Source of the DNA: Candidatus Altimarinota bacterium
GTDB taxonomy: Bacteria > Patescibacteriota > Gracilibacteria > BD1-5 > UBA6164
Assembly: GCA_037444775.1 (NCBI GenBank)
Contig: JBBILU010000006.1
Coordinates: forward strand, 8,899 to 72,898
Reading direction: 5' to 3'
DNA length: 64,000 bases
A program made the position numbers and the translations under genes. This document shows, piece by piece, positions 2,862 through 59,850 of the stretch. Below the pieces are notes generated by a model. The model was given only the letters and a program-made list of their open reading frames with translations. It did no database searches and was not told the DNA's origin. How positions within the stretch are numbered: the stretch's first letter is position 1; every line of letters begins with the position of its first letter.

Positions 2862-4820
<1,959 letters not shown>

Positions 4821-6830: not shown

Positions 6831-7038
6831 ATTTTTCTTATATGAAGTGTTTATTTATGGGAGAAATATGAAAAAATAGAAAAATAAGTTTTTTACAAAT
6901 AAAATTTTGAATTTTGATTTTAACAATTATGATGATTATGTCTTTTATAATTTGAATAAAGTATTTAGACAATGAAAGTATAAAATAATATAACTTATAA
7001 TGTCCATTATTTATGTTTATAATATTAACCAATAAATT

Positions 7039-8004
7039 ATGAAAAAAATCCCTCTTACTATTATAACTTGATTTTTGGGTTCAGGAAAAACTACTTTAAT
7101 AAATAGAATTTTAAAGGAAAACAAGGATTTAAAAATTGCTTTAATTGTAAATGAATTTTGAGATGTTTCTCTTGAAAGTCAATTTATTCAAAGTACAAAT
7201 GAAGAAATTGTTGAAATGTCTAATTGATGTATGTGTTGTGTTGTTAGAAAAGATATTATTGAAACTGTTGAAAATTTATTAGAAAAAAGACCAGATACAG
7301 ATTATATAATTGTTGAAGCAAGTTGACTTTCTGATCCTACTCCAATTGCTGAAACTTTTGCAATGAATTTGACAGATAAAATTAGACTTGATGCAGTTTT
7401 GTGTGTTGTTGATTCTCTTAACATTGAAAAAAACTTCCAAAATTACGAAATAGCAAGTAAACAAATTCTTTATAGTGATATGGTTTTAGTCTCAAAAACT
7501 AATTTTATTTCATCTGAAAAATATCAAGAAATTAAATTTTTTATTAAAAAATTTAATCCATTTATGAGAATTCTTCCTATAAATGAAAGTTTGGATTTGA
7601 AAATGATTCTTGATACAAATAAATTTGATTATTCTAAAGTTGAAGAATTAGAAAAAAAAGAAAAACATCATTGTCATGATGAACATTGTGATCACGAACA
7701 TCATCACCATCACGAAGAAATTGATGAAGTTTTTGTGAAAACTACAAAACCTTTGAATATGGAAAAATTCGCACTTTTTATAAAAAATTTGCCAGAAAAT
7801 ATTATAAGATGAAAAGGATTTATTTATCCAAATTGAGAAGATTATAAATGAAAAAAAATGCTTTTTCAATATGTTTGAGTTAGAATAGATACGGAATTTT
7901 CTGATTGGGATTCTAGTGAAACAAAACAAACTGCAATTGTTTTTATTTGAAAATGATTTGATAAAAAAGATATAGAAAAGAAAATTTTAGATTGTGAAAG
8001 TTAA
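7039..8004 (+). CDS. COG0523-family GTPase metallochaperone (CobW/YjiA/ZigA-like)
   Basis: GFLGSGKTTL P-loop, GCMCC metal motif, EASGLSDP, His-rich HHCHDEHCDHEHHHHH linker, CobW C-terminal domain. 321 aa. Confidence 0.85.
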
Positions 8005-8005
8005 A

Positions 8006-8043
8006 CCTCACCCCCTAGCCCCCTCTCCTTTAGGGGAGGGGGG
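8006..8043. repeat. Family A palindromic element, intergenic
   Basis: cctcaccccctagccccctctcctttaggggagggggg, two nt after the stop of the COG0523 gene. Confidence 0.8.
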
Positions 8044-8071
8044 AAATATATAAATTAAAATTTATTATTTT

Positions 8072-10279: not shown

Positions 10280-11530
10280 TTGAAAAATAACTTTGATATT
10301 GTGATAATTTGAGCTGGAGCAGCTGGGCTTTTTGGAGCAATAAATATTTCAAAAGATTTTTCTAAATTAATTCTTGAAAAAAATCCAAAACCTTGAGTAA
10401 AAGTCTTACTTTCAGGTTGAGAAAGAGCAAATGTTAGTAATATAGATATAGAACCTGAAAGAGATTATTTTGGACAAAATAAAAAAGCTTTGAAAAGTAT
10501 TTTTGCAAGATGCAATCAATGGGATATTATGGCTTGGTTTTCAGAAAATAGAATAAATATAGTTGAAGAAGATAGATGAAGATTAATTCTTGAAAGTTGA
10601 AACTCTAAAGAATTGCTAAATATTTTAGTAAAAAAGGCAAAAGAAAATAATTCTGAAATTATTTGTAATAGTGAAGTTGTGAAAATAAAACACTCTCTAA
10701 TTCCCTCCTCTTTCCTAAGGATGGAAGAAAATAAGGAAAAAATATTTAGAATTGAAACAAAAACTTGAGAAGAATATTTTGCTAAATATGTTATTGTTTC
10801 TACTTGATGAAAAAGTTTTTTTCAGGTTTGAACAACTGGAGATTGATATAATTTTGCAAGAAATTTTTGAATAAATATTATTCCTCCAACAAGAGCTTTG
10901 TGATGACTTTCTACCAAAAAAGATTTATCAAGTATTAGCTGAATTTCTTGTAATGTTAATTTAGAAGTTTTTGATAAAAAAAAATCCCCTCTCCTTGAAA
11001 AGGAGGGAGCTAGAGGGTGATTTTATCAAGAAACTTGACCAATTTTATTTACTCATTTCTGAATAAGCTGACCAATCATTTTTAATGCTTGAAATGCTAT
11101 TTGAGAATATCTGAATAAATCCCCCCTCCTTGGAAAGGAGAGAGCTGGAGAGTGGTCTGAAATAGAAGTTATTTATGAAAAATATTTAACCCAAAATATT
11201 TATATAAAATTAAACTTTGATTTAGAAAAAACTCCAAAAAACATAATAAAATTCTTTGAATTAGACAAAAAAATAAATATAAATTGAACTCAAATTTATA
11301 ATACAGAAATAATTTTGGATTTACAAAATTTTAGAAGTTGGAAAGAAGCAAAGGCAACTGGTTGATGAATAGATTTGAATGAATTAGATAAATTTTTGCA
11401 GTCAAAGAAAGTTCCAAATTTATTTTTTATTTGAGAGATATGTGATATTACTGGGAAAACTGGAGGATTTAATTTGCAATGGGCCTGGAGTAGTGCATTT
11501 TGTGCAAGTGAATTTTTTAGTAGAAATTAA
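10280..11530 (+). CDS. HI0933-family (BaiN/YhiN-like) NAD(P)/FAD-dependent flavoprotein
   Basis: TTG start, then NNFDIVIIGAGAAGL dinucleotide fold, LSGGERANVSN, STGGKSF..GTTGDGY, C-terminal GEICDITGKTGGFNLQWAWSS. 416 aa. Three in-frame repeat insertions. Confidence 0.85.
10683..10728. repeat. Degenerate family A-like insertion inside CDS
   Basis: ctctctaattccctcctctttcctaaggatggaagaaaataaggaa, translated HSLIPSSFLRMEENKE. Confidence 0.4.
10985..11020. repeat. Family A palindromic element inside CDS
   Basis: tcccctctccttgaaaaggagggagctagagggtga, translated KSPLLEKEGARGG. Confidence 0.8.
11120..11155. repeat. Family A palindromic element inside CDS
   Basis: tcccccctccttggaaaggagagagctggagagtgg, translated KSPLLGKERAGEW. 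Confidence 0.8.
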
Positions 11531-37078: not shown

Positions 37079-38842
37079 TTAAATCTCTCTAACCATATAT
37101 TCTCACTGCAAAATATATCATCTTTTTTCATAATATTGCCTAACTCAAACTCAAGAAATAACAGCTATTTTATTGAATCAAGCATTTTTAGCTATTTCTT
37201 CAGCTTTTGCAATAAGTTTTTTTCAAAAACCTATATGTTGACCAAAAGTTGAACCTTTTTCATTTATAGAAAGTTGGTCTCAAAAAGTATGAATTTCTCT
37301 AATCAAAGCTGCTCATTCTAACTCTGGAAAAATTTTTCCCTCACCCCCTAGCCCCCTCTCCTTTGGAGTAGAGGGGGAAATAGTATTCTGCGCCTTCTCC
37401 TCCAAAGGAGAAGGCTGGGATGAGGTGTCACTCGGCAATCTCAACCTTAACAAACTAAAAATAGTTCTATCAATTGGATCTTCAAAAGTCAAGAAAAATT
37501 CTTTTCAACCACTAGCTTCATATTCAAAAATATTTAAAACAGCATCACGAGGATTATTTTTTCAATCTTTGATTTCCCTATGACGAATATCAACAAGTTT
37601 TATTCATTCAGATTTCAACTTATCTTCAACAATTTGTCTAAGATTTGCCAAATGTGAACCTTCAAGAATTTCACTTGCTGGAATATCTCTATAAGTTCTG
37701 TTTATTCTAACATATTCAGGAATCATTGTTTCAAGTTTGCAAGTCAAATTTATTAATGTTTCATCATCATAAGCCTTAAATCATCAAGTTTTCCAAATTT
37801 CTGTTAATTCAGAATTATTTGTAACCATCATTGGATAAATTTTTAATTCATCAGGTCTGAAATCTGGATTTTCAAAAACTTCTTTCATAGATTTAATATC
37901 TAGTTCTGGATTAGAACCAAGCAAGTTTGGCATCATATGAGCAACAACTTTGAATCAAGCATTTTTCAACATTTTTGTTGCTTTAATACTTTCAGCATTT
38001 CAATGTCACCTTTTATTTAACTCATTTATTTCATCAATTGTAGTTTGATAACCAATTTCTACACGAGTTACTCAAAATCTTCTTAAATCTTTTATTTCTT
38101 CTTCATTAACCCAATCTGGACGAGTTTCAATTGCTATTCAAATAATTCTACATCTTGTAGTTTCATTTATTTTTTTTGCTTCTTCTAGAGAAGAACTCTC
38201 TTTCATTTTATAAGTTTCTTTTATTTTAAAACTTGCAAATTTATCATTTGAAAAATCTGTTTTTTCAATAAACTTACTCATTTCATCATAAGTATTAAAT
38301 GCATCATAAATTCATTTTATAAAACTTTCTTTATAGGATTTTGGATAAAAACTCCAAGTTCAACCAATAATTCTAACATCATTTTTTTCTATTTTGTGCC
38401 CTGTAATTTCCAAAGCTCTAAGTCTATTATGAATTTGCATTATCGGATCGAATTTATTTAATTCTGCTCTTTGTACTGCTGGTTCATTTGGAATATAACT
38501 TTTTGGTAATCCCTCAAAAGTTGGACAATAAACACATTTTCAAGGACAAGGAAAACTTTTTGTCAAAAGAGAAATCACAGTAACTCAAGACAAACTTCTA
38601 ACTCCTCTTTTTCTAAGAACTTTTGTCAAAACTAAATCCTCTTCTATTTCTCAATTATTTATCAAAAAATTATATCTTTCTATTAATTCTATACTAGAAA
38701 AAGGTTTTACTATTTTGTATTCTCCATAAATCTTGTTTTTTAGCTTATGAAAAACATCTTTAGTAAAAACTTTAGTATTAGATTTTATTTCATCATATGC
38801 ACTAAAAATTATTTTATCAATTATTTCATTTTTATTTATCAT
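37079..38842 (-). CDS. elp3: Elp3-like radical SAM / GNAT acetyltransferase
   Basis: CPGKCVYCP radical SAM cluster, IIGGTWSFY, VEIGYQTT, C-terminal GNAT (FGQHIGFGKKLIAKAEEIAK). 587 aa. A double palindromic element sits in frame before FPELEGAALIREIHTFG. Confidence 0.8.
37338..37427. repeat. Composite (two inverted units) family A element inside elp3
   Basis: ccctcaccccctagccccctctcctttggagtagaggggg-N13-cgccttctcctccaaaggagaaggctgggatgaggtg. Translated (minus strand) [31 protein letters not shown]. Confidence 0.9.
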
Positions 38843-39055: not shown

Positions 39056-41182
39056 TTAAATATTTTTTAAAAATTCTTCTAAACTTATTACAGAAATTCA
39101 TAACAAATTAGCTTTTTGTAACTTACTTCAAGCCTTTTCTCAAGCAAGTAAAAAGTTAGTATTTTTTGAAACCGAAGAAACAAATTCTCATCAACTTTTT
39201 TCTAAAATTTCTACTAATTCATCACGGGAATATCACTCAAAACTTCCAGTTATACAAACTTTTTTTCAGAAAAATTTATTTTGTGCCATCCTCTCTCCTC
39301 TAAGGAGAGGGTTAGGGTGAGCTTGTGTTGATGTGGAATTATCAAACTCCAAAACTTCAAATAAATCTTTAATAATTTTTTTGTGAGCATCGTTGGAAAA
39401 ATATTCTACCAAATTTTTCGCAATTTCTGGTCAAATATCAGGTAAACTTATTAATATTTCTATATTTTCAAAAGCTTTCAAAAATATTTCTAAGTTAAAT
39501 TTCTCAAAACTTAATGACAAAATATATTTTTCAAGAGTTTTTGCTGTTTTTTTACCAACTCCAGAAATTCAAAGAGCTGTAATAAATTTTTTTAAATCAG
39601 TTTTTTTAGCTTCTGAAACAGATGAAATTAAATTAGAAACAGATTTTTCTTTAAATCATTCAAGTTCAAGAATTTTTTCTTTTTTAGATGAAATTTTGAA
39701 AACATCAACTATATTATGAATAATTCAAAAATTTAAAAATAATTCTACTTGTTTTTCTCAAAGTCAATCAATATTAAATCATTGCTTCCCTACTGCAAAA
39801 GCAAGTTTTTCCGACTTTTGAGCTGGACAATCTACAGAATTTGGACAATAATATCTAACTTTATCTTCATCTTTTTGAATTTTTGTATTACAACTTGGAC
39901 AAAATTCTGGTGGAAGAATCTTTTCTAATTTATTCTCTTCTTGGGATGAGCTTACAACAGAAATAATTTTTGGAATTACTTCTCAAGCTCTCTTCAAAAA
40001 AACATAATCTCAAATATTTACTCCTAAATTTTCAACTTCTTCATAATTATGTAAAGTTGCTCTTTTTACTGTTACTCATCAAATTATAACTGGTTCAAGA
40101 TTAGCTACTGGGGTAATTGTTCCTGTTCTTCAAACTGAATGTTCTACAGAAATAATTTTACTTGTAAAAATTTCTGCTGGAAATTTATAAGCAATTGCAT
40201 ATCTTGGATGATGTTCTGTTTTTCATATAGTTTCCCATAAATGAATATCATTAACTTTCAAAACAAGTCAATCAATATCAAAATCAATTTCTTTTTTTGT
40301 ATTTCAGAAATTTTCAATATTTTTTATAACTTCCTCAATTCAATTACAAATTTTGAAATAAGAAGAAATTTCAAATCATAAAGTTTCTAAATATTTTATA
40401 ACAGAAAAATAAGCATAACTTTTTCAAATATAAAATAGAAAAAAATCTTGTTTAAACTCTCATAAATCATAAGCAAAAAACTTCAAGTTTCTTTTTTCTG
40501 TTAAATTTGTATCCAAAGTTCTAAGACTTCAACTTGCTGCATTTCTCGGATTAGAAAAAACTTTTTCTCAATTTTTTATAGCATCTTTATTTAATTTTTC
40601 AAAGCTAGAAATAGGCATAATAACTTCTCATCTAACTTCTAAATCTCATAAATAAGAAATTTTTTTAGGAATATTTTTTATTTTTTTTACATTTTCAGTT
40701 ACATCTTCTCATAAAATTCAATTTCATCTAGTTATAGCTTGAACAAATTCTCAATTTTTGTAAATTAATTCTACTCAAAGTCAATCAAATTTGAATTCCA
40801 AACAATATTCAATATTCTTCAAAACTAAAAAGCTGTTATTAGATACTAATTTCATAACTCTCTCATCAAAATCTCTTAAATCTTTTTCATTATAAGTATT
40901 ATCAAGACTAATCATAGGTCTTGAATGTTTTACTTTTGCAAAAGTTGATTCTTTAACTTCAGCTCAAACTTGTCCTCAAAATTTTTTTTCTAAAGAAAAT
41001 TTCTCTTCTAGAAATTGCAATTTTTTGAGTAAATCATCATAATCTTTATCACTAATTATTGGTGATTGTTTATTATGATACAAATCAGAATGATATTCAA
41101 GAATTTTTTGCAACTCTAAAACATCTTTTTCACTAAAATTATCTAAGTTTTTTTCTAAAAATATTTTTGATTTCTCCAACAT
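39056..41182 (-). CDS. ligA: NAD-dependent DNA ligase
   Basis: CLEFKFDGLGVE (KxDG), zinc finger CPSCNTK...YYCPNSVDCP, HhH repeats, C-terminal BRCT (KKVCITGSF...). 708 aa. Palindromic insertion lies in the HhH-BRCT linker. Confidence 0.95.
39290..39322. repeat. Family A palindromic element inside ligA
   Basis: cctctctcctctaaggagagggttagggtgagc, translated (minus strand) AHPNPLLRGER. Confidence 0.85.
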
Positions 41183-42527: not shown

Positions 42528-44039
42528 ATGAAAAAACAAGAATTTTTAGAAAATATTACAGTAGAAAAATTAGTTTTTGGAGGAAAATGATTTGCTAAAC
42601 ATTCAGATTGAAGAATAATTTTTATTACATGAGGAGTTGTTCCATGAAGCATTGTTAACTTAAGAGTTCTAAAAAAGAAAAAAGATTATATAGAAACTCA
42701 AGTTCTTGATGTTGTGAAAAAATCCAATTTAGAAAAAGTACATCCAAATAATATTTATTGAGAATGTTGAGGTTGTAAACGGGTAAATATTCCTTATATA
42801 GAACAATTAAAAATTAAAGAAAATCAAGTAAAAGAATCTCTTAATTTACTTAAAAAATATAATGAAAAATATAATGAAAATTCTTTTTCATCAATTCTTC
42901 CATCTCCTTTAGTTGATTGATATAGAAATAAAGTGGAATTTTCTTTTGGAAAATTAATTAGTGCAAAAGCTGGAATTGAAGAACATTTTAATGTTTGATT
43001 TCACAAACAAGGAAGTTTTAGCCAAGTTCAAGATTTTGAAGGTTGTATTTTAATTGATGATTTAGCTAATAAAATTTATAAAAAAATTAAAGATTTTTCA
43101 AAAACTTCTTGATTACCTGTTTATGATCAAAAAACTTGAGAATGATTTTTTAGACATATATTGCTAAGAAGAACTTTTTTTGCAAATGAAATTATGATTG
43201 TTTTTAGTTTTAATGATAAATACCATACACAATCCATCCTTAGTAAAGAGGGAGTTAGAGGATATTCTGCCTTTATCCAAGAAATCAAATCTTTTTTTCT
43301 TGAATTAGCAAAAGAATTTAGTGAGATAAAATCTATTTATTTGTCTTATAATTCAAATAAAGCTGATATTGCAATTTGAGAGCTTGAATTAATTTATTGA
43401 GAAAAAACAATTAAAGAAAAACTTTTAGATTTAAATTTTGAGATTTCTCCAACAAGTTTTTTTCAAACAAATTCTTATTGAGCAGAACTTTTGTATTCAA
43501 AGGTTTTAGAAATAGCAGAGGCTCACCCTACCATCTCCTTAGAGGAGAGGGATAACACCCCCTCTCCACTGAGGAGAGGGCTGGGGTGAGGTTCTAAAAC
43601 TGTCCTAGATTTATATGGTTGAACTTGAACAATTTGAATGATTTTTGCTAAGGCTTGAGCTAAAAAAGTTTATTCTGTTGAACTTGTGAAATCAGCTTCA
43701 CAAGATTGACAAAATAATGCAAAGAAGAATAATTTAGAAAATATAGAATTTATTAATGCAAAAGTTGAAGATTTTTTAGAAGATTATTTAAAAACTTCTA
43801 AAAAAGCAGATTTGTTGATTATTGATCCACCAAGGGCTTGAATGCATCCAAGTGCTTTACCAAATATTTTGAAATTTGATTCAGAGCAAATAATTTATGT
43901 AAGCTGTAATCCAAGCACTTTAGCAAGAGATTTGGAATATATTTTAAAAAATAGCACTTACAAAATAGATAAAGTTATTCCAGTTGATATGTTCCCACAC
44001 ACTCATCATATAGAAACTATTGTAAGTTTGAGAAAGTAA
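42528..44039 (+). CDS. rlmD: 23S rRNA (uracil-5-)-methyltransferase RlmD/RumA family
   Basis: TRAM-like N-terminus, Cys cluster YGECGGC, FFQTN, VLDLYGGTGTIG SAM motif, IIDPPRAG, YVSCNPSTLARD. 503 aa. Confidence 0.9.
43521..43591. repeat. Composite family A element inside rlmD
   Basis: gctcaccctaccatctccttagaggagagggat-aaca-ccccctctccactgaggagagggctggggtgagg. Translated AHPTISLEERDNTPSPLRRGLGGG, immediately before the SAM-binding motif. Confidence 0.9.
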
Positions 44040-51302: not shown

Positions 51303-53168
51303 ATGACCGAAATATTAAAAATATTAAAAACTTACAAATTAAATAAGAAATTATTTTTCTATTTAATTTTTTTTACAATAAGTTCTCAACTTCTTATAGT
51401 TAGTATACCTATCGTAACATCCAAAATAACAGGAGTTTTAGAATTCAAATGAGATTTAAAAGATTTTTATTTTTGGTGCTATATTCTGATTATTGTTTCA
51501 ATCTTTTTGTGTATTTCATTTTTTATGGAGGTTTTTTTTAGAGAATATCTTTGGCTAAAAACTTGGACAGAATTGATGAAAAGTTCAAGAAAAAAACTTT
51601 TTGAAAAAGATTATAAAACAATTATAGAAGTTTGAACTTGAAAACTTATTTCAAGACTAGCAAGATGAATTGATGCTCAAACTGATATTTTTACTGCTCT
51701 TGTAAGCATATTTTTCAATGCTGGACTTAGAATTATTTTACTTGTAATTGTATTTTTCTTTACTTCACCACTTTTTGCTTGGATAATAATTTTTTGAGCA
51801 ATTTTTCTTTGAATAGTTGTTTATTTTACAAGAAAATATGCAGAAAAATATCAAAAAGAAGAAGTTGAACTTTGGGAAAAAAGTTCAAGAGTTGAAGCAA
51901 AATTAATTATGAATAATCTTGATTTAAGAATTCTTTGAAAAGAAAAAAAAGAATTAGAGCTTTCAGATGAAGTTCTCTCAAAACTCCCAAATGTAGCAAG
52001 AAAAGCTGATATTCCAAGAAATGTTCAATGAAATTTACTTGAACTTATCACAAGAATAATAGTATTTTTTATTTACTTTGTTTTTGGTTTACAAATTTTA
52101 AAATGAGAACAAAGTATTGCAAATATGACTTTGATAATTATGAGTCTTTGGACTCTTTATCATCCTCTAAACAAAGCTATGGACGAGATTTGAAGAATTA
52201 GTCGTGTTTGGGATAAATATATGAAATTACAAAAGTTTTTGGATACTGAAATTGAAATAAAAAATTGAGCTAAAGTTTTTGAATACAAAAAATGAGAAAT
52301 TAAATTTGAAAATGTAGATTTTTTTTATAATAATGATAGAAAAATTTTTGAAAATTTAAATTTAAAAATAAAATCATGACAAAAAAATGCTTTTGTTTGA
52401 CATAGTTGATGAGGAAAATCAACAATTACAAAATTAATTTTGAGACTTTATGAAATAAGTTCTTGAAAACTTTTGGTTGATTGACAAAATATTAAAGACA
52501 TAAAAATAGAAACTTTTTATAATAACATTGCTTATTTATCTCAAGAACCAGCTGTTTTTGACTGAACTATTAGAGAGAATATGGAGTATGCTTTGAGTCA
52601 AAATTCCCAGTCTTCTCCTTTAGACCTCACCCCAACCCTCTCCTTTGGAGGAGAGGGAGAAAGAGAGAAATCTGTTATAATCCCATTTGTTGAAATTGAC
52701 AAGAATGTAGAGGTGTTTGGTAAAAACATCTCAAAAGATGATGAACAAGAAAAACAAATTTGGGAAGCTCTTAAAAAAGCCAAAATGGATGATTTGGTAA
52801 AATCTCTTCCAAAATGACTTGATACAGAAATTTGAGAAAAGTGAATAAAACTTAGTTGATGAGAAAAACAAAGACTTGCAATTGCAAGAGTTTTTCTAAA
52901 AAATCCTAAAATAATTATTCTTGATGAACCAACTTCTGCACTTGATAGTATAAGTGAAAATCATATTACAGAAAGTTTAAATGAACTTTTGAAATGAAAA
53001 ACTAGTATAATAATAGCTCACAGATTGCAGACAGTTATTAATTCTGATAAAATTTTTGTTATAGAAAATTGAAAAATAGAATCAGAATGAACTCATTTAG
53101 AGCTTTTGAAAAAATCAAAAATATATAAAACTTTGGTTGATTTGCAACATTGATGTTTAGTTGAGTAG
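51303..53168 (+). CDS. ABC exporter, fused TMD-NBD (MsbA-like)
   Basis: Six-helix TMD, then [39 protein letters not shown]. An upstream in-frame TTG at 51246 is an alternative start. Carries an in-frame insertion of about 45 aa, including a palindromic element, between the Q-loop region and the signature motif. Confidence 0.9.
52611..52667. repeat. Family A palindromic element inside the ABC exporter gene
   Basis: tcttctcctttagacctcaccccaaccctctcctttggaggagagggagaaagagag, translated [19 protein letters not shown]. Confidence 0.85.
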
Positions 53169-54194: not shown

Positions 54195-57100
54195 TTATTT
54201 TTTTAATTTTATTTCTACTTTCATCTCATCAAACTCAATTTCTTTTTCTAAATCAAAACTTTCTAAATTACCTTCAATTTTTGAAAGAGTTTCTGTTTCT
54301 ATATAATTTTCAAAGTTTTTTATAGCTTGTGCTATCCTTTCTCCAATTGGAAAAGAGTTAGAGAGAGGGCTTAATTGTATTTTTATTCTATCATCAACTT
54401 GATAATCAGCTTCTTTTCTAGCTTCTTGAATTGCTCTTACTAAATCTCTTGCTATTCATTCTTGCTGTAATTCTTCTGTTAAACTTGAATCCATAGCAAT
54501 TACCATTCAAAATCCAGCCTCAATTTCATATTGAGAATCTCCAGCCTCAAAAGCAAGTTCATATTCTCAAGATTCAAGAATGAAACTTGTGTTATTTTTT
54601 TTCTCCAAAGGAGAAGCTAGGTGAGGTATTCTAACTCTTCCTTCTTCCAATTCCTCAAAATTTCCTGCTTTTGCTTCTTGCAAAATATATTTTACATCTT
54701 GTCCAAACTTTGGACCAATAAGCCTTGCATTTGGTTTACAAATTTTTTTTGCAATAGAATCAGCATTTACTATAATTACTTCTTTTACATTTAATTCTTC
54801 TTTCAAAATATTTTTATAATATTCTTCCAGATTTTCTCAAATAGTAATTGATTTCAAAGGTTGTCTTACTTTAAGCTTGTGATTTACTCTCCAAGCCAAA
54901 CCAAGATTTATAAATTTTTGAGTTTTTGCCATTTGTTCACTCAAATCTTTATTAACAAAAGCACTCACATATTCAGGAAAAATATCTAGATGAACTGATT
55001 TTTTTCCAGTTAAATTTTTGTAAATATGATCTGCTAAGAATGGCATAAATGGAGCAATAATTTTTGAAACTTCCACCAAAACTGTATGAAGAGTATTGTA
55101 AGCTTGTATTTTGTCTCCATCATTTTCTGATTTCCAAAATCTTTTTCTAGATCTTCTAATATACCAATTTGTCAAATTATCCATAAATGCAGGAATATTT
55201 TTGGTTGCCTCATTGATTCTATAGCCATCTAATCACATTGAAACTTCTCAAATCAAAGTATGAAGTTCTCATAAAATCCATTTATCTAGTGGATTTTGAA
55301 GTGGAATTTTTGGGAAAGTGATAATTTGAGCATTTTTTACAGTTGGCATTTCAAGATGTGCATAGTCTAAACTCATTCACAAATACTTTTTGAAAAAAGG
55401 TCTAGCACTTCCAGCATGTCCAACAAACAAAATATTTTTGTCTCTATTTTTTAACAGAATTTCTTCAAAAGCTGTTTCAACTCTTGTTTGAAATTGTTCA
55501 TAATTTTCTATACTAGAATTTTTAAAAATTTTTCTCAAAGCTACTTTATCCTTCAAATCTACTCAATAAATTTCTGCTATTTCTTTATGACTCTTCCCTT
55601 CAAATTCAGCATAATTTTGTTCTTTAATTCCATCATTTATAAGAATTTCTCAAGTATATCATGAATTTTCAGCAATAATTTTTGCAGTTTCTAAAGCTCT
55701 ATCTAAAGGAGAACTTACTATCAAATCAAATGTAATTCCAGCAATTTTTGCATTTTGTCAAGATTTTTTTGCTTGTTCTTTTCATTTTTCAGTTAATTTA
55801 GGATTATCCATAGCTCCAGAAATTCCAGCAGACTCAACTGTCCACCTAGCATTACTTTCACTTTCAGCATGTCTTACAAAAAATATTTGTCATTTTGGAA
55901 CCTCAAAGTTATCAATATTTGCATAAGTAGTGAAAAAACTATAGGTATTCCACAAAGGCAAAATTACTTTTTTCACCACTTCTTCAACTCCAATTTCACT
56001 AAATCTCAAATCTTGAGCCTCAACAACTGGAGAATTCATTAAATAAAATCTCATTGCATCAGCACCATATTTATCAAAAATTATTTCAGGAGCTGGATAA
56101 TTTTGTAAACTTTTACTCATTTTTTTCCCATCTTCAGCCAAAACAATTCAGTTCACAATAGTGTTAAGTGTAGCAGGAGAATCAAAAAGTGCAGTAGAAA
56201 GAATAATCAAAGTATAAAACCAACCTCTGGTTTGGTCTAATCATTCAGCAATAAAATCTGCTGGGAAGCCCTCACCCCTTGCCCCTCTCCTTTGGAGTAG
56301 AGGGGAGTTTTTTTGCCCGTGCTCCTTCTTCTCCAAAGGAGAAGGTTGGGATGAGGGAAAAGCAAAAGGATAGTGTTTACTTGCATAAGGCATTGCTCAA
56401 CTTTCAAACCAACAATCAAGAACTTCAGGGATTCTTTTTAATTTCTCTCAAGTTTTTGGAGATTTCACAAAAATTTCATCAACAAAATGTTTATGCAAAT
56501 CAACTTCTTTTCAAGTTGCAGTGTAAAAATATTTATTGCCTCTTTTTTCAATCTGCCCAAAATCTTTATTTGCTTCATATAATTCTTCTACACTTCCAAT
56601 ACAAACTTCCTCAGTTTTGTCTTCATTTTGCCAAACTGGAATAGCTGAACCCCAATATCTATTTCTTGAAATATTCCAATCTCTTGCTTGTTCTAGCCAT
56701 TTCCCAAATCTTCATAATTTAATATTTTCTGGTGTCCAATTTGTTTTCAAATTATTTGCTACCATTTTATCTCTAATTTTTTCAACTGCCACATACCAAG
56801 CAGAAATAGCTCTATAAATTAATGGAGTACCACATCTCCAACAATGTGGATAAGAATGATCTATAGTCCCAATATGAAAAGAAAGCTTTTTCTCTTTTAG
56901 TTCAGAAACCACAAAATCATTGAAATCAAAAACAAATTCTCCATTATGTTCTAATAAATTATAAGTTTTTCCAGAATCATCAATATGAGCTACAAAACCT
57001 AAATCTTTTTCTTTTCAAATAATATTATCATCTTCTCAATAAGCTGGAGCAATATGAACAATTCCAGTTCAGCTTTCTGTTGTTACATGATGACCAATTA

Positions 57101-58082
57101 CTACAGAAAAAGAATTTTTTCAAAGTGCAATTCCATTTCATAAATCTGAATTCATTTCAGCCAATTGCAAATAAAAATCATCAAACAATGGCTCATAAGC
57201 AATTCCTACTAAACAAGTTCCAGGATATTCTCTCACAAGAGTATAATCCTCTTCTTTTTTGTAATAATTATTTACTCTTTCTTTAGCCAAAATATATGTG
57301 TCTCCAGTATTTTTATCAAGAATTTCCACATAAATTATATTTTCACCAACTGCAAGTCAAAGATTTGCATAAAGTGTCCAAGGAGTAGTGGTCCAAGCAA
57401 GAATATATTTATTTGGAGAATTTTTTATCTTAAATTTTATAGTAACAGCTTTAGATTGTTTGTCTTTGTATCCTTGATTTACTTCGAAGTTTGAAAGTGG
57501 AGTCGTACATCTTGGACAATAAGGAACAATTCTATTTCCTTCATAAATAAGCCCTTTATCATAAATACTTTTAAAAACCCACCAAACTGATTCCATAAAA
57601 TTGGTATCCATAGTTTTGTAATCATCTTCCATATCAACCCATCTTCACATTCTATTTACTGTTTTTTTCCATTCATCCACATAACCAAAAACATTTGCTC
57701 TACAAGTTTCATTGAAATCATGAACTCAAATTTTATTTTCTATATCATCTTTTCAGTTTATTTTCAACTTTTTTTCAACAATATTTTCAATAGGCAATCC
57801 ATGACAATCCCAACCAAATTTTCTGGTAACTTTTTTTCATTTCATAGTTTGGTATCTTGGAATTACATCTTTGATAGTTCCAGCTAAAATATGTCAATAA
57901 TGAGGAGTTCCAGTTGCAAATGGAGGACCATCATAAAAATTAAACTCATTTTCATTGCTTCTTGAATCCACAGATTCTTCAAAAATTTTTTCTTCTTGCC
58001 AAAACTTTAGCATTTCTTCTTCTAATTTTGGAAAGCTTTGTTTTGGGTTTACTTCTGGGAAGTTCTTAGTTATTTTTGTCAT
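54195..58082 (-). CDS. ileS: Isoleucyl-tRNA synthetase with internal histidine-phosphatase-like domain and three palindromic insertions
   Basis: 1295 codons. All track fragments at 57894, 57357, 57138, 56712, 55890, 54837 and 54567 share one frame. I translated 56712-55182 codon by codon and found no TAA/TAG. Motifs: [12 protein letters not shown] (HIGH), [47 protein letters not shown]. Confidence 0.95.
54601..54626. repeat. Family A element inside the ileS C-terminal region
   Basis: ttctccaaaggagaagctaggtgagg, translated (minus strand) PHLASPLEK. Confidence 0.7.
55305..55892 (-). other. Histidine phosphatase (PGAM-like) domain inserted in ileS, about residues 731-925
   Basis: [12 protein letters not shown] (RHG-type motif), [40 protein letters not shown]. 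Located between ...[20 protein letters not shown] and ...LDKWILGELHTL... of the IleRS anticodon-binding domain. Confidence 0.7.
56269..56357. repeat. Composite family A element inside the ileS catalytic core
   Basis: ccctcaccccttgcccctctcctttggagtagaggggag-N13-gctccttcttctccaaaggagaaggttgggatgaggg. Translated (minus strand) [30 protein letters not shown], between HYPFAF and FPADFIAEG. Confidence 0.9.
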
Positions 58083-58124
58083 AGGTTTTTGGTTAGATTT
58101 TAAATTTGACTTTTAATAAGTTTT
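58036..58124. repeat. ileS 5' segment (first 47 coding nt plus about 42 nt of upstream leader), copy 1
   Basis: Nearly identical to 59144-59232. The coding part also matches 58619-58665. Confidence 0.9.
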
Positions 58125-58158
58125 CTAATATAATATATTTGTTCCTAGAGAACTTAAT

Positions 58159-58191
58159 GGCTCCTAGCAGCTCACCTCCTGAAAAGGAGGT
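58159..58191. repeat. Family A-like palindromic element, intergenic upstream of ileS
   Basis: ggctcctagcagctcacctcctgaaaaggaggt. Confidence 0.6.
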
Positions 58192-58209
58192 ATAAAAATG
58201 AAAGTGCAT

Positions 58210-58665
58210 TTATTCAATAAGTGCATTTATTTTTTGTTTAATTTCTTTTAGTTTACACTCCTCAATTCATCAAATATGAGATAACAATCTTTTTGAACTA
58301 TATAATTTTATTTGAGAAAGAATTAAAAAATTATTTTGTCATTTTATATTTCAAATATCATAATAAAAAAATCAATGTTTTACTTTTGTAGTACTAGGAA
58401 TTCACAAAAACATATCTTTATTAAATTTTTTAAGAATCAAAATTGGTCTACTAAAATCTTCATTTTTTCCATCTTGTTCAAATCAAATATTTATTCACAT
58501 AGAAATAAACCAAACTTGTCATTCTCTAAAGTAAGGAATTTTGGATTCACTTTTAGTATGAATTTTCTTTTTTTCATTATTCCATAAATCAAACATTTCT
58601 TCCTCTCATTTTGAAAAACTTTGTTTTGGGTTTACTTCTGGGAAGTTTTTAGTGTTTTTTGTCAT
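58210..58665 (-). CDS. MazF/PemK-family toxin with an IleRS-derived N-terminus
   Basis: ...REGQVWFISMGINIGFEQDGKNEDFSRPILILKKFNKDMFLGIPSTTKVKH...FLILSQIKLYSSKRLL fits the PemK/MazF pattern. The first 16 aa, [16 protein letters not shown], match IleRS, and weaker similarity continues to about residue 33. 151 aa. Confidence 0.7.
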
Positions 58666-58679
58666 GGTATTTTTGGTTA
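58619..58679. repeat. ileS 5' segment, copy 2
   Basis: ctttgttttgggtttacttctgggaagtttttagtgttttttgtcat is shared with copies 1 and 3. Confidence 0.85.
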
Positions 58680-59060
58680 ATATTGTATGTTAAAACTTAT
58701 AAATATACTTTCAAGGATATTATGCAATTCTTCTTTTTTTATATTTCCTTTAGCAACTCATATAGCGATATCTTCCATTTTTACAAAAAAAGAAGGTATG
58801 AAAATATTATTAATTTCAAGAAAAAGCCCTAAGCTTCAAATAGCAGTCCTTTTATTCCCATCATTAAAACAATGGAAATTTATAAGTCAGAAGAATAAAT
58901 GAGTTGCTTTTTCAACAATGTTTTTATAATAATCATCATTTTGTATATGTTGAAGTATTGAGTCTATTTGTTGCTTATCTTTTATTCCTGAAAGTCATCA
59001 AAATATTTCTAAAATATTATTATGCAGATTAATAACATCATGTACATCTAAATAATTCAT
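58677..59060 (-). CDS. doc: Doc (death-on-curing) Fic-fold toxin
   Basis: ...GGLSGIKDKQQIDSIL...ATHLFFGLINFHCFNDGNKRTA... carries the Fic/Doc core HxFxDGNKR. 127 aa. Confidence 0.8.
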
Positions 59061-59061
59061 T

Positions 59062-59190
59062 TTATTTTTGTGTTAGTCTTTTAAATGCTTCATAATTTCA
59101 TTGATCAGAAATTTGCTCTTCTAAAAAATGTTTTGTATTAATACTTTGTTTTGGGTTTACTTCTGGGAAGTTTTTAGTGTTTTTTGTCAT
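59062..59190 (-). CDS. Small chimeric ORF in the antitoxin position upstream of doc
   Basis: 42 aa. The first 16 aa are identical to the MazF-like N-terminus and come from the ileS 5' copy. Stop is 1 nt before the doc ATG. No recognisable Phd fold. Confidence 0.4.
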
Positions 59191-59232
59191 AGGTTTTTGG
59201 TTAGATTTTAAATTTGACTTTTAATAAGTTTT
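59144..59232. repeat. ileS 5' segment, copy 3
   Basis: The leader part cataggtttttggttagattttaaatttgacttttaataagtttt is identical to copy 1. Confidence 0.9.
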
Positions 59233-59372
59233 TTCGTATAAGAGGACAAAAAGTTTCTAAAAATATTTTTCTGTATATAATTGTTCCAAAACTTCTCTAT
59301 AATCAAAAGCCATTTTCAAATATTTTGTTTCTTCATAGCTAAAGTAATTCTAATCTTCATCTAAAAGTTTTT

Positions 59373-59591
59373 TTATCATAAATATTCATTAATTAACTTT
59401 AAAGCTTCATTTTTATAATCATCTTCTTTTAATTCACTATACAAAGTTGCTTCTTGTAAAAATTTATCATATTCATCAAGTTGTTTTTGAGAATAATTCC
59501 CAGAGCTAAAAAGTTCTTCCAAAAGAGTATCAAGAGAAGCAAAATCATCTTTTTCAAGAGCTTCTTTTACTTGCAAAATCATTGTTTTCAT
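59373..59591 (-). CDS. Hypothetical small acidic protein
   Basis: 72 aa: MKTMILQVKEALEKDDFASLDTLLEELF.... First ORF after the T-box terminator. The N-terminal extension of track ORF 59376..59666 runs through that terminator and is rejected. Confidence 0.45.
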
Positions 59592-59603
59592 AATTCTTTT
59601 TAA

Positions 59604-59808
59604 AAAAATAAAAAGCACAAAAAAATATTTTTGTGCTTTCGGTCCAATTTTATTGGAAGGTACCACCTAAAGCTTTGGAACAATTTTTTTGTTCTCTACT
59701 TAATTTAATTTTTTTAACGGAGATTTTAAACTTCGGGAGATTCTACTAAAACTAAAAGTTCGTTCTTTCTCCAGCTCGTAGTTGATAGCTACTCAAATGC
59801 TTTTGATT
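59604..59808 (-). promoter_or_regulatory. T-box riboswitch leader, probably Ile-specific
   Basis: On the minus strand: F-box CCGUUA (59720-59715). T-box core UUAGGUGGUACC (59671-59660), with UGGU in a bulge between helices GCUUU/AAAGC and UCCAAU/AUUGGA (antiterminator). A competing terminator AAAGCACAAAAA/UUUUUGUGCUUU plus U-run follows. Candidate specifier AUC at 59741-59739. Confidence 0.8.
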
Positions 59809-59815
59809 GAGATCA

Positions 59816-59843
59816 ATTATATAAAAAAATAGTTTTTTGCAAA
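59816..59843 (-). promoter_or_regulatory. Promoter of the T-box leader
   Basis: Minus strand: TTTGCA, 16-nt spacer, TATAAT (59821-59816). Confidence 0.55.
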
Positions 59844-59850
59844 ATTATTT

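Follow-up and report, generated by a model that had tools for sequence, protein, structure and literature searches.

At positions 59806-59601 of the stretch analysed here, 64,000 nucleotides from a Candidatus Altimarinota bacterium (contig JBBILU010000006.1, positions 8,899 to 72,898; hereafter the window), lies a segment that, judged from its sequence, is an isoleucine-specific T-box leader tied to ileS, the gene for isoleucyl-tRNA synthetase (IleRS). We read it with good confidence as a minimal-type leader that most likely acts by transcription attenuation and behind which a toxin module has been inserted by recombination; that the segment is a functional isoleucine T-box attenuator is, taken by itself, highly probable. 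Coordinates are those of the window (24.4% GC), the leader and its operon are on the minus strand, and related loci are designated by L numbers.

The leader is preceded by the promoter-like sequence TTTGCA-16-TATAAT (59843-59816), noticed in an initial annotation of this DNA. It scores 10/12 matches, is the best minus-strand match between 57900 and 59950 and is also kept in the relative L147. The first element of the leader is an ultrashort Stem I (59801-59773), composed of a base helix AGC/GCU, a GA-type internal loop and an upper helix GUAG/CUAC (59792-59789/59781-59778) that closes the 7-nt loop CUAUCAA (59788-59782). In this loop is the predicted specifier, the isoleucine codon AUC (59786-59784), with A59783 next to it. 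Stem II (59772-59736) has the base helix GGAGA/UCUCC and is flanked by conserved S-turn-type motifs, AAGAA (59767-59763) and AGUAGAA (59747-59741), a region that the Rfam T-box model RF00230 aligns with its own Stem II GAA/AGUA positions. Stem IIA (CGAAG/CUCCG) and the F-box CCGUUA (59720-59715) occupy 59735-59715. The linker motif AAAUUAAG (59706-59699) holds a conserved RAG (A59701 A59700 G59699), whose role in T-boxes is taken from PMC11297988, and a 6-bp Stem III (GAACAA/UUGUUC, 59694-59678) comes next.

The T-box core UUAGGUGGUACC (59670-59659), read from the sequence, contains the T-box sequence UAGGUGGUACC (59669-59659), with its UGGN bulged between the two helices of the antiterminator (59673-59635). 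These are A1, GCUUUAGG/CCGAAAGC (59673-59666/59642-59635), and A2, UCCAAU/AUUGGA (59657-59652/59648-59643), both of which covary among relatives. The bulge reads UGGUACC (59665-59659), and its UGGU (59665-59662) is the predicted partner of the tRNA 3' ACCA. The F-box, the core and the bulged UGGU between two helices are all present as annotated; the architecture departs from the canonical T-box expected there, in that Stem I is ultrashort and the specifier sits in its terminal loop. Consistent loop-linker complementarity of the kind expected for a IIA/B pseudoknot was not found in the members inspected by eye.

A scan of the whole window with Rfam at the gathering threshold gave two tRNAs and no T-box. 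Run permissively, RF00230 aligned end to end on 59806-59636 with 23.5 bits, compared with a gathering score of 93 (E = 0.0037, 601 nt searched). In the initial annotation a score below threshold had been named as grounds for dismissing the T-box; the score is indeed below it, and we attribute this to a model that expects a long Stem I, since 78 distal Stem I model positions are replaced by 7 nt in the alignment. RF00230 gave no match in 28 related loci. Because of this failure, membership of the family rests on motif identity and on a covariance model, R1, seeded with nine aligned leaders on which Stem I, Stem II, Stem IIA, A1 and A2 were marked.

Many Candidate Phyla Radiation (CPR) loci, retrieved through their IleRS, carry a TAGGTGGTA core upstream of ileS on the same strand. 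With R1, 12 of 19 CPR-type loci yielded a leader on the strand of ileS (Gracilibacteria and Peregrinibacteria), among them the non-seed loci L010, L012, L014 and L019 at 64-108 bits; about 60 Treponema-type loci yielded none. A GGTGGCACC match at 4595 in L012 was discarded as lying within coding sequence; the true leader of that locus is at 2728-2870. In metagenomes, a gapped motif scan yielded 64 contigs, in 54 of which R1 confirmed a total of 55 leaders (30-160 bits). The family thus counts 67 homologues, 12 genomic and 55 metagenomic, or 68 leaders with that of the window, which brings the genomic alignment to 13.

Both alignments support the marked helices. Among the 13 genomic leaders, 93.2% of the cells are paired and 21 of 30 pairs show compensatory changes, while slid controls reach at most 47% paired. 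The corresponding values for the 55 metagenomic leaders are 93.9% and 25 of 30 (285 compensatory cells), with slid controls at or below 52%. None of 500 shuffles in either alignment matched the observed paired percentage or covariation score, and RNAalifold recovered the Stem I hairpin, the Stem II base, Stem IIA and A2 from a MAFFT alignment that had not been fitted to the structure. Compensatory changes occur in 4/4 pairs of the Stem I upper helix (98-100% of cells paired in the two alignments), in 5/5 pairs of the Stem II base and in 3-4/5 pairs of Stem IIA (97-98% of cells paired). Moreover, the bulge UGGUA and UAGGUGGUA are invariant across the 67 leaders, the AAGAA/UAGAA motifs and the F-box are conserved, and the linker consensus AAAUYAAG is found in 67/68. 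An explanation of the T-box likeness as a chance match in AT-rich DNA could appeal to the Rfam score below the gathering threshold; it is already refuted by the 67 homologues, in which covariation is strong, specifier and T-box bulge do not vary and the linkage to ileS is consistent, and we give it practically no weight.

The same alignments define the shape of the family. All 68 leaders have a Stem I whose upper helix is only 4-6 bp long, with no long Stem I, AG bulge or distal loop; the common form is a 3-bp base, a GA-type internal loop, the 4-6 bp helix and a loop of about 7 nt. Only the window, L122 and L144 have Stem III, which makes 3 of 67 members; in the 64 without it, A1 begins 8-11 nt past the RAG motif. 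The closest leader relative, L147 (~380-680), is 75% identical at the DNA level; where Stem III would lie, it has about 75 inserted nt that contain two hairpins, and its leader is followed by an acidic open reading frame (ORF) and a MazG-like gene, not by doc and pemK.

AUC is found in the Stem I loop of 13/13 genomic leaders and of every metagenomic leader with Stem I on the contig, mostly with A next to it. In the window, the codon in AUC-A (59786-59783) matches the downstream ileS and is followed by a purine; it is exposed by a hairpin loop instead of an internal Specifier Loop. Folding Stem I, the check originally recommended for the specifier, therefore resolves to an isoleucine codon. 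Another AUC, at 59741-59739, had been singled out for its position beside a helix strand; this triplet lies at the Stem II 3' strand, shows no conservation and was rejected as the specifier. The UGGU bulge fits a tRNA with A73, as predicted, and the tRNA-Ser of the window was confirmed to carry G73. Bacterial tRNA-Ile usually has A73, and the GAU anticodon together with A73 is assumed here.

Gene context agrees with the codon. A same-strand ileS follows the leader in 12 genomic loci; among the 20 metagenomic leaders that have over 2 kb of sequence after them, this holds for 18. The leader directly precedes ileS in L019, L072 and 8 metagenome loci, the arrangement that a synteny comparison had been expected to look for. 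GC-rich relatives have the order leader, PALP+LeuA_dimer enzyme, RidA (functions of the isoleucine-pathway type) and ileS. The invariant AUC and the linkage in relatives bear out the initial proposal of an isoleucine-specific T-box tied to ileS. One locus, L138, has tandem isoleucine T-box leaders at 4242-4394 and 6851-7001 (minus strand), 2.6 kb apart and upstream of a single ileS; control appears to have been re-imposed there inside a long operon.

The leader ends in an intrinsic terminator (59640-59601), a 13-bp hairpin (59640-59611) with a U-tract to 59601. Its 5' arm reuses GAAAGC, the A1 3' strand, which makes it mutually exclusive with the antiterminator, as annotated from the shared AAAGC. 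It is the sole terminator-like site on the minus strand from the leader to ileS (scan of 57900-59950). The antiterminator was calculated at -9.6 kcal/mol and the conformer with terminator and A2 hairpin at -20.1 kcal/mol; as modelled, OFF is thus the default state, in keeping with a T-box. An equivalent terminator, defined as a hairpin of -8 kcal/mol or lower that opens within the 3' strand of A1, with 5 or more U in 9 nt behind it, was identified in 54 of 67 evaluable leaders.

After the window hairpin comes UUUUUAUUUUUUU, and a weak Shine-Dalgarno-like AAGAA and the AUG of the first ORF (59591) lie outside the hairpin. As this start region is past the U-tract, the platform is better described as an attenuator than as a Shine-Dalgarno sequestrator. 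A translational leader, with the 3' hairpin as sequestrator, would be in line with the published T-boxes of ultrashort Stem I, which are all translational. The GC-rich members L010 (~3750-3765), L012 (~2885-2900), L108 and L131 have a start codon right behind the U-run (…UGAGUGUUUUUUUAUG), with no conventional Shine-Dalgarno spacer; an added translational effect may exist in these four, and the hairpin 3' arm (UGAGUG) could also mask a ribosome-binding site. Such a reading is nevertheless very improbable for the window: its AAGAA and AUG are outside the hairpin, a hairpin with U-tract recurs in 54/67 leaders, and the first ORF begins 40-150 nt past the hairpin in many loci.

From this anatomy and the established T-box mechanism, a course of events can be proposed for the attenuator. 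Transcription would start from the promoter at 59843-59816, and the anticodon of uncharged tRNA-Ile(GAU) would pair with AUC 59786-59784 in the 7-nt loop of the ultrashort Stem I, a contact that the S-turn motifs of Stem II and the Stem IIA/F-box element would support. The free tRNA 3' ACCA would then pair with UGGU 59665-59662 and hold the weaker antiterminator against the stronger terminator. A charged tRNA-Ile could not make this second contact, and transcription would stop at about 59601. Read-through would enter a co-directional operon made up of an acidic 72-aa ORF, a decayed chimeric ORF, doc, a pemK-like gene and ileS. We infer tRNA binding, the choice between termination and antitermination, and co-transcription through the toxin genes to ileS by analogy with known T-boxes.

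ileS itself (54195-58082) starts at 58082, 1.52 kb downstream of the leader terminator, in keeping with the annotated distance of about 1.5 kb. It is whole only under genetic code 25, in which TGA is read as Gly. ORF calls made with table 11 were rejected for this gene, which they shatter, with the first break at the Gly of the HIGH motif (PHY-TGA-H). Table 25 restores a single ORF of 1295 codons with 31 in-frame TGA, one of them at that Gly. Similarly, the four small genes annotated between the leader and ileS are present, although only when TGA is read as Gly. ORF lists made with table 11 mislead across the whole window.

The product is a eukaryote-like (type 2) IleRS of 1295 aa, with 338 bits against cytoplasmic IleRS and 127-139 bits against the S. 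aureus-type enzyme. Its nearest relatives are in metagenome-assembled genomes of Gracilibacteria and Patescibacteria (71-82% identity), then in Peregrinibacteria and then in Treponema. Mycobacterial IleRS is of the same eukaryote-like type. A His_Phos_1 domain (9.7e-32) is inserted at ~55350-55900, IleRS residues 733-909, between the catalytic core and the anticodon-binding domain; tblastn detected this insertion in the IleRS of at least 12 related CPR loci (L009-L012, L014, L083, L094, L108, L113, L115, L125 and L132).

It is probable that ileS depends on the T-box leader in this genome, as the arrangement of the genes suggests. A different reading is that the T-box governs only the proximal gene or genes, for example the acidic ORF, with doc, pemK and ileS expressed mainly from internal promoters. 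Promoter-like hexamers are frequent in AT-rich DNA, two spacers measure 141 nt (59372-59232) and 127 nt (58209-58083), the 42 nt ahead of the ileS ATG were duplicated along with the first copy of the ileS start (see below) and are possible expression signals, and the second leader inside the L138 operon suggests that long operons may need renewed control. Between 59601 and ileS, however, there is no terminator-like site and no minus-strand promoter match above 9/12; the genes are co-directional and mostly tightly packed, both in the window and in 38 related intervals; and the leader has stayed ahead of ileS although as much as 4.9 kb of cargo can separate the two, which argues for a selected linkage. 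We therefore regard control restricted to the proximal genes as rather unlikely and retain dependence of the operon on the leader. The best promoter-like match of the region, TTGACT-17-TATAAT (58106-58134, 11/12), is on the plus strand, antisense into pemK, and falls partly within the ileS upstream segment duplicated in that copy.

The toxin genes lie immediately ahead of ileS. The doc gene (59060-58677) encodes 127 aa with 5 in-frame TGA codons, matches Pfam Fic (1.8e-12) and TIGR01550 DOC_P1 (60.7 bits, cutoff 38.65) and carries the motif HCFNDGNKR, which fits the Fic/Doc pattern HxFx(D/N)(A/G)NKR. The PemK/MazF-like gene (58665-58210), with 10 in-frame TGA codons, matches Pfam PemK_toxin PF02452 at 24.0 bits (cutoff 23.1). 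It encodes 151 aa from an ileS-derived ATG, or 128 aa from an internal ATG at 58596 that corresponds to the native start of its homologues; PemK-like homologues occur in the same interval of L001, L083, L103 and L120 (32-53 bits). The in-frame TGA codons mark both genes as native to the code-25 gene pool. No recognisable Phd/YefM, MazE or PemI antitoxin was found beside doc or pemK.

Two extra copies of the ileS 5' end accompany these genes. Copy A (59232-59144) corresponds to ileS -42 to +47 and is 96.6% identical to it; copy B (58665-58594) corresponds to +1 to +72 with 90% identity and is fused in frame to pemK. The copies share derived substitutions relative to the true ileS start, and among the loci compared they occur in the window only; an exact search of metagenomes with the 29-nt core of the repeat returned no match. 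The 42-aa chimeric ORF (59190-59062) consists of 16 ileS codons and a decayed tail, which has an identity of 27/40 with the copy B/pemK junction and of 21/40 with ileS. The closer resemblance to the junction suggests a decayed junction copy and not the antitoxin-like gene originally annotated, and no match was obtained in Pfam, NCBIfam or PADLOC.

Comparison with L120 helps to place these copies. That locus has the order leader, acidic ORF, pemK, …, ileS, and its pemK has a native 5' end with no ileS copy; DNA homology of this pemK to the window begins at 58584, just past copy B. In the window, 89-nt direct repeats stand on either side of a 1.1-kb segment that runs from copy A to the region ahead of ileS. 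Independent Logan assemblies of two sequencing runs in which this organism also occurs, SRR11582162 and SRR11582163, agree with the window at 100% identity upstream of 59203 and stop at that point, 30 nt into copy A, as expected of k-mer assembly at a true repeat. The ileS-start direct repeats around doc and pemK indicate that these genes are not original to the operon and were inserted by homologous or illegitimate recombination at the ileS start, through routes such as Campbell-type integration of a circle carrying the segment, or duplication followed by replacement. The initial annotation had offered two options, toxins under tRNA-Ile control or toxins inserted between ileS and its riboswitch. 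Synteny and the direct repeats support the insertion; the options are not exclusive, and co-control with ileS is likely to be its consequence.

Whether Doc and PemK are active toxins is a separate matter. That they are, and are regulated by the T-box leader, is a possibility that we put forward with some reserve. Nearly as plausible to us is that the two genes are mere passengers, in decay or domesticated and devoid of toxin activity, whose position behind the T-box is physiologically meaningless. The lack of a recognisable antitoxin fits such passengers, the 42-aa ORF resembling a junction remnant, as do the foreign 23-codon N-terminal extension and the low score of pemK and the many unrelated genes housed in the same interval elsewhere. 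Yet both ORFs are intact under code 25, Doc retains its catalytic motif and scores above the NCBIfam cutoff, and PemK-like genes recur in this interval in 5 loci, with conservation between the window and L120.

In the relatives, the distance from leader to ileS ranges from ~20 nt to 4.9 kb and is 0.6-4.9 kb in the code-25 clade, with 124 of 134 cargo ORFs co-directional and tightly packed. As far as these loci represent it, the interval in the Gracilibacteria clade is a variable cargo bay. The commonest cargo is the acidic ORF (16 loci, e.g., L003 2315-2548, L006 4126-4359 and L009 4609-4824), followed by MazG-like (6 loci), PemK-like (5), DUF559 (5), NUDIX (4), GNAT (4) and CYTH (3) families; small membrane proteins occur in several loci. 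Many of the cargo genes encode nucleotide or pyrophosphate hydrolases (the MazG-like, NUDIX and CYTH families, and an inorganic pyrophosphatase in L020), in the intervals of L001, L095, L103, L125, L135, L143, L144, L147, L003, L006 and L020. In L001, MazG-like and PemK(MazF)-like genes occur together, recalling the E. coli mazEFG operon.

The acidic ORF of the window (59591-59373, 72 aa, read with code 25) is the first gene past the terminator. Its family is conserved, with members of ~72-83 aa that share the motif D(D/E)ILxEATLYxELKxxEYKxxAL and are located directly behind the T-box terminator or directly ahead of ileS. Neither Pfam nor NCBIfam gave a match, and a word-seeded search of 5.8 billion proteins retrieved only 3 homologues, all without annotation; the 71-aa table-11 product is not on record, and a cluster look-up gave no accession. 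The ORF was considered as an antitoxin of PemK and rejected: it adjoins pemK in L120, but 14 loci have the ORF and lack pemK, and 3 have pemK and lack the ORF.

Small GC-rich palindromic elements are also scattered through this 24% GC DNA, with a core of about CCCTCTCC-N-GGAGAGGG, often with CCTCACCCC ahead. Copies were located at 7996-8055, 11116-11166, 22753-22804, 37322-37454, 39282-39338, 43512-43613, 52604-52673 and 56245-56330; one copy is in frame within ileS and extends IleRS by added residues. A degenerate hairpin, ACCTCCTTTTCAGGAGGT, lies at ~58165-58148, directly upstream of ileS.

Several points weigh against an isoleucine attenuator that controls the whole operon. The RF00230 score is far under the gathering score, and that model is blind to the relatives. 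Neither the window nor 19 CPR loci yielded a tRNA-Ile gene, so that GAU and A73 are assumed. Promoter-like sites are common at 24% GC (18 found, 12.9 expected by chance), and doc, pemK or ileS may have internal promoters of their own. U-rich tails, too, are less informative at this base composition, and the deposited assembly is the basis for the order of the modules across the repeat core of 50 identical nt. Finally, co-transcriptional T-boxes are said to need a distal Stem I that binds the elbow and so captures the tRNA fast (PMC7583486), and this element is absent from the window leader.

It is conceivable, and we suggest it only tentatively, that these leaders form an unannotated minimal T-box class of Gracilibacteria and Peregrinibacteria that decides at a terminator without an elbow platform and, in the window, couples toxin expression to uncharged tRNA-Ile. 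If so, they would contradict the rule that only translational T-boxes dispense with distal Stem I; a widespread family combining ultrashort Stem I with a terminator would put the kinetic argument for a long Stem I to a direct test. The operon would also be a landing pad for accessory genes, in which PemK-like proteins (at least 5 loci) and Doc tie aminoacylation status to growth arrest. The cargo bay, hypervariable and co-directional, is enclosed by a conserved leader and a conserved ileS start, and the window retains the scars of recombination. RF00230 misses the CPR leaders altogether, and these offer a regulatory handle of a kind that is scarce for uncultivated, recoded bacteria with reduced genomes. 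A tRNA-sensing attenuator of ~150 nt is very small and could be of use in engineering. The occurrence of a hairpin-loop-specifier ileS T-box on a eukaryote-like IleRS in both Actinobacteria and CPR would point to shared ancestry or to joint transfer of leader and gene.

We know of no report of a T-box-controlled toxin gene. The toxin module resembles Phd-Doc and MazEF/PemIK systems in having a Doc with an intact Fic/Doc motif, a PemK/MazF-fold protein and small genes in tandem. It differs from them in having no recognisable Phd, MazE or PemI, in that doc and pemK are each headed by an ileS-start copy, and in its location in an aminoacyl-tRNA synthetase operon behind a riboswitch instead of behind its own autoregulated promoter.

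With canonical T-boxes (RF00230; Bacillus subtilis tyrS and glyQS), the CPR leaders share the terminator/antiterminator alternative, the T-box sequence AGGUGGUACC, the F-box, the layout of Stem II and IIA, the RAG motif, default-OFF energetics and the predicted control of an aminoacyl-tRNA synthetase operon. Unlike these, they have no long Stem I with Specifier internal loop, AG bulge and distal loop, a difference reflected in the 23.5 versus 93 bits of the window and in the unmatched relatives. According to reviews, transcriptional T-boxes generally require a long Stem I with an elbow platform, given the short time before the polymerase reaches the terminator, and a short Stem I is regarded as a mark of translational control (PMC7583486, PMC11297988).

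The nearest described counterpart is the ultrashort class, in which a short helix replaces Stem I and carries the Specifier in its terminal loop; all its members regulate ileS with tRNA-Ile and all are translational (bioRxiv 10.1101/2023.02.28.530422; PMC12990946). Such ultrashort ileS T-boxes are described in the Actinobacteria Mycobacterium smegmatis, M. tuberculosis and Nocardia farcinica (bioRxiv 10.1101/2023.02.28.530422, PMC7583486, PMC12990946). The database TBDB sought hairpin-loop-specifier isoleucine T-boxes only in Actinobacteria, and our literature search turned up no paper connecting T-boxes to CPR or Patescibacteria. Set beside published descriptions of this class, the CPR family shares its short Stem I with AUC in the terminal loop, the missing elbow-binding distal platform, the S-turn-type motifs of Stem II, Stem IIA with the F-box, the bulged UGGN and the association with ileS and tRNA-Ile (for the CPR family, by gene context). 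The two differ in the expression platform, a terminator hairpin with U-tract in CPR and a Shine-Dalgarno sequestrator/antisequestrator in Actinobacteria; in Stem III, which 64 of 67 CPR members do not have and which in Actinobacteria stacks on the antisequestrator; and in their hosts, Gracilibacteria and Peregrinibacteria, one clade of which uses code 25. By its predicted mechanism and core features, the CPR family would thus be a T-box, and a variant that falls outside both described classes.

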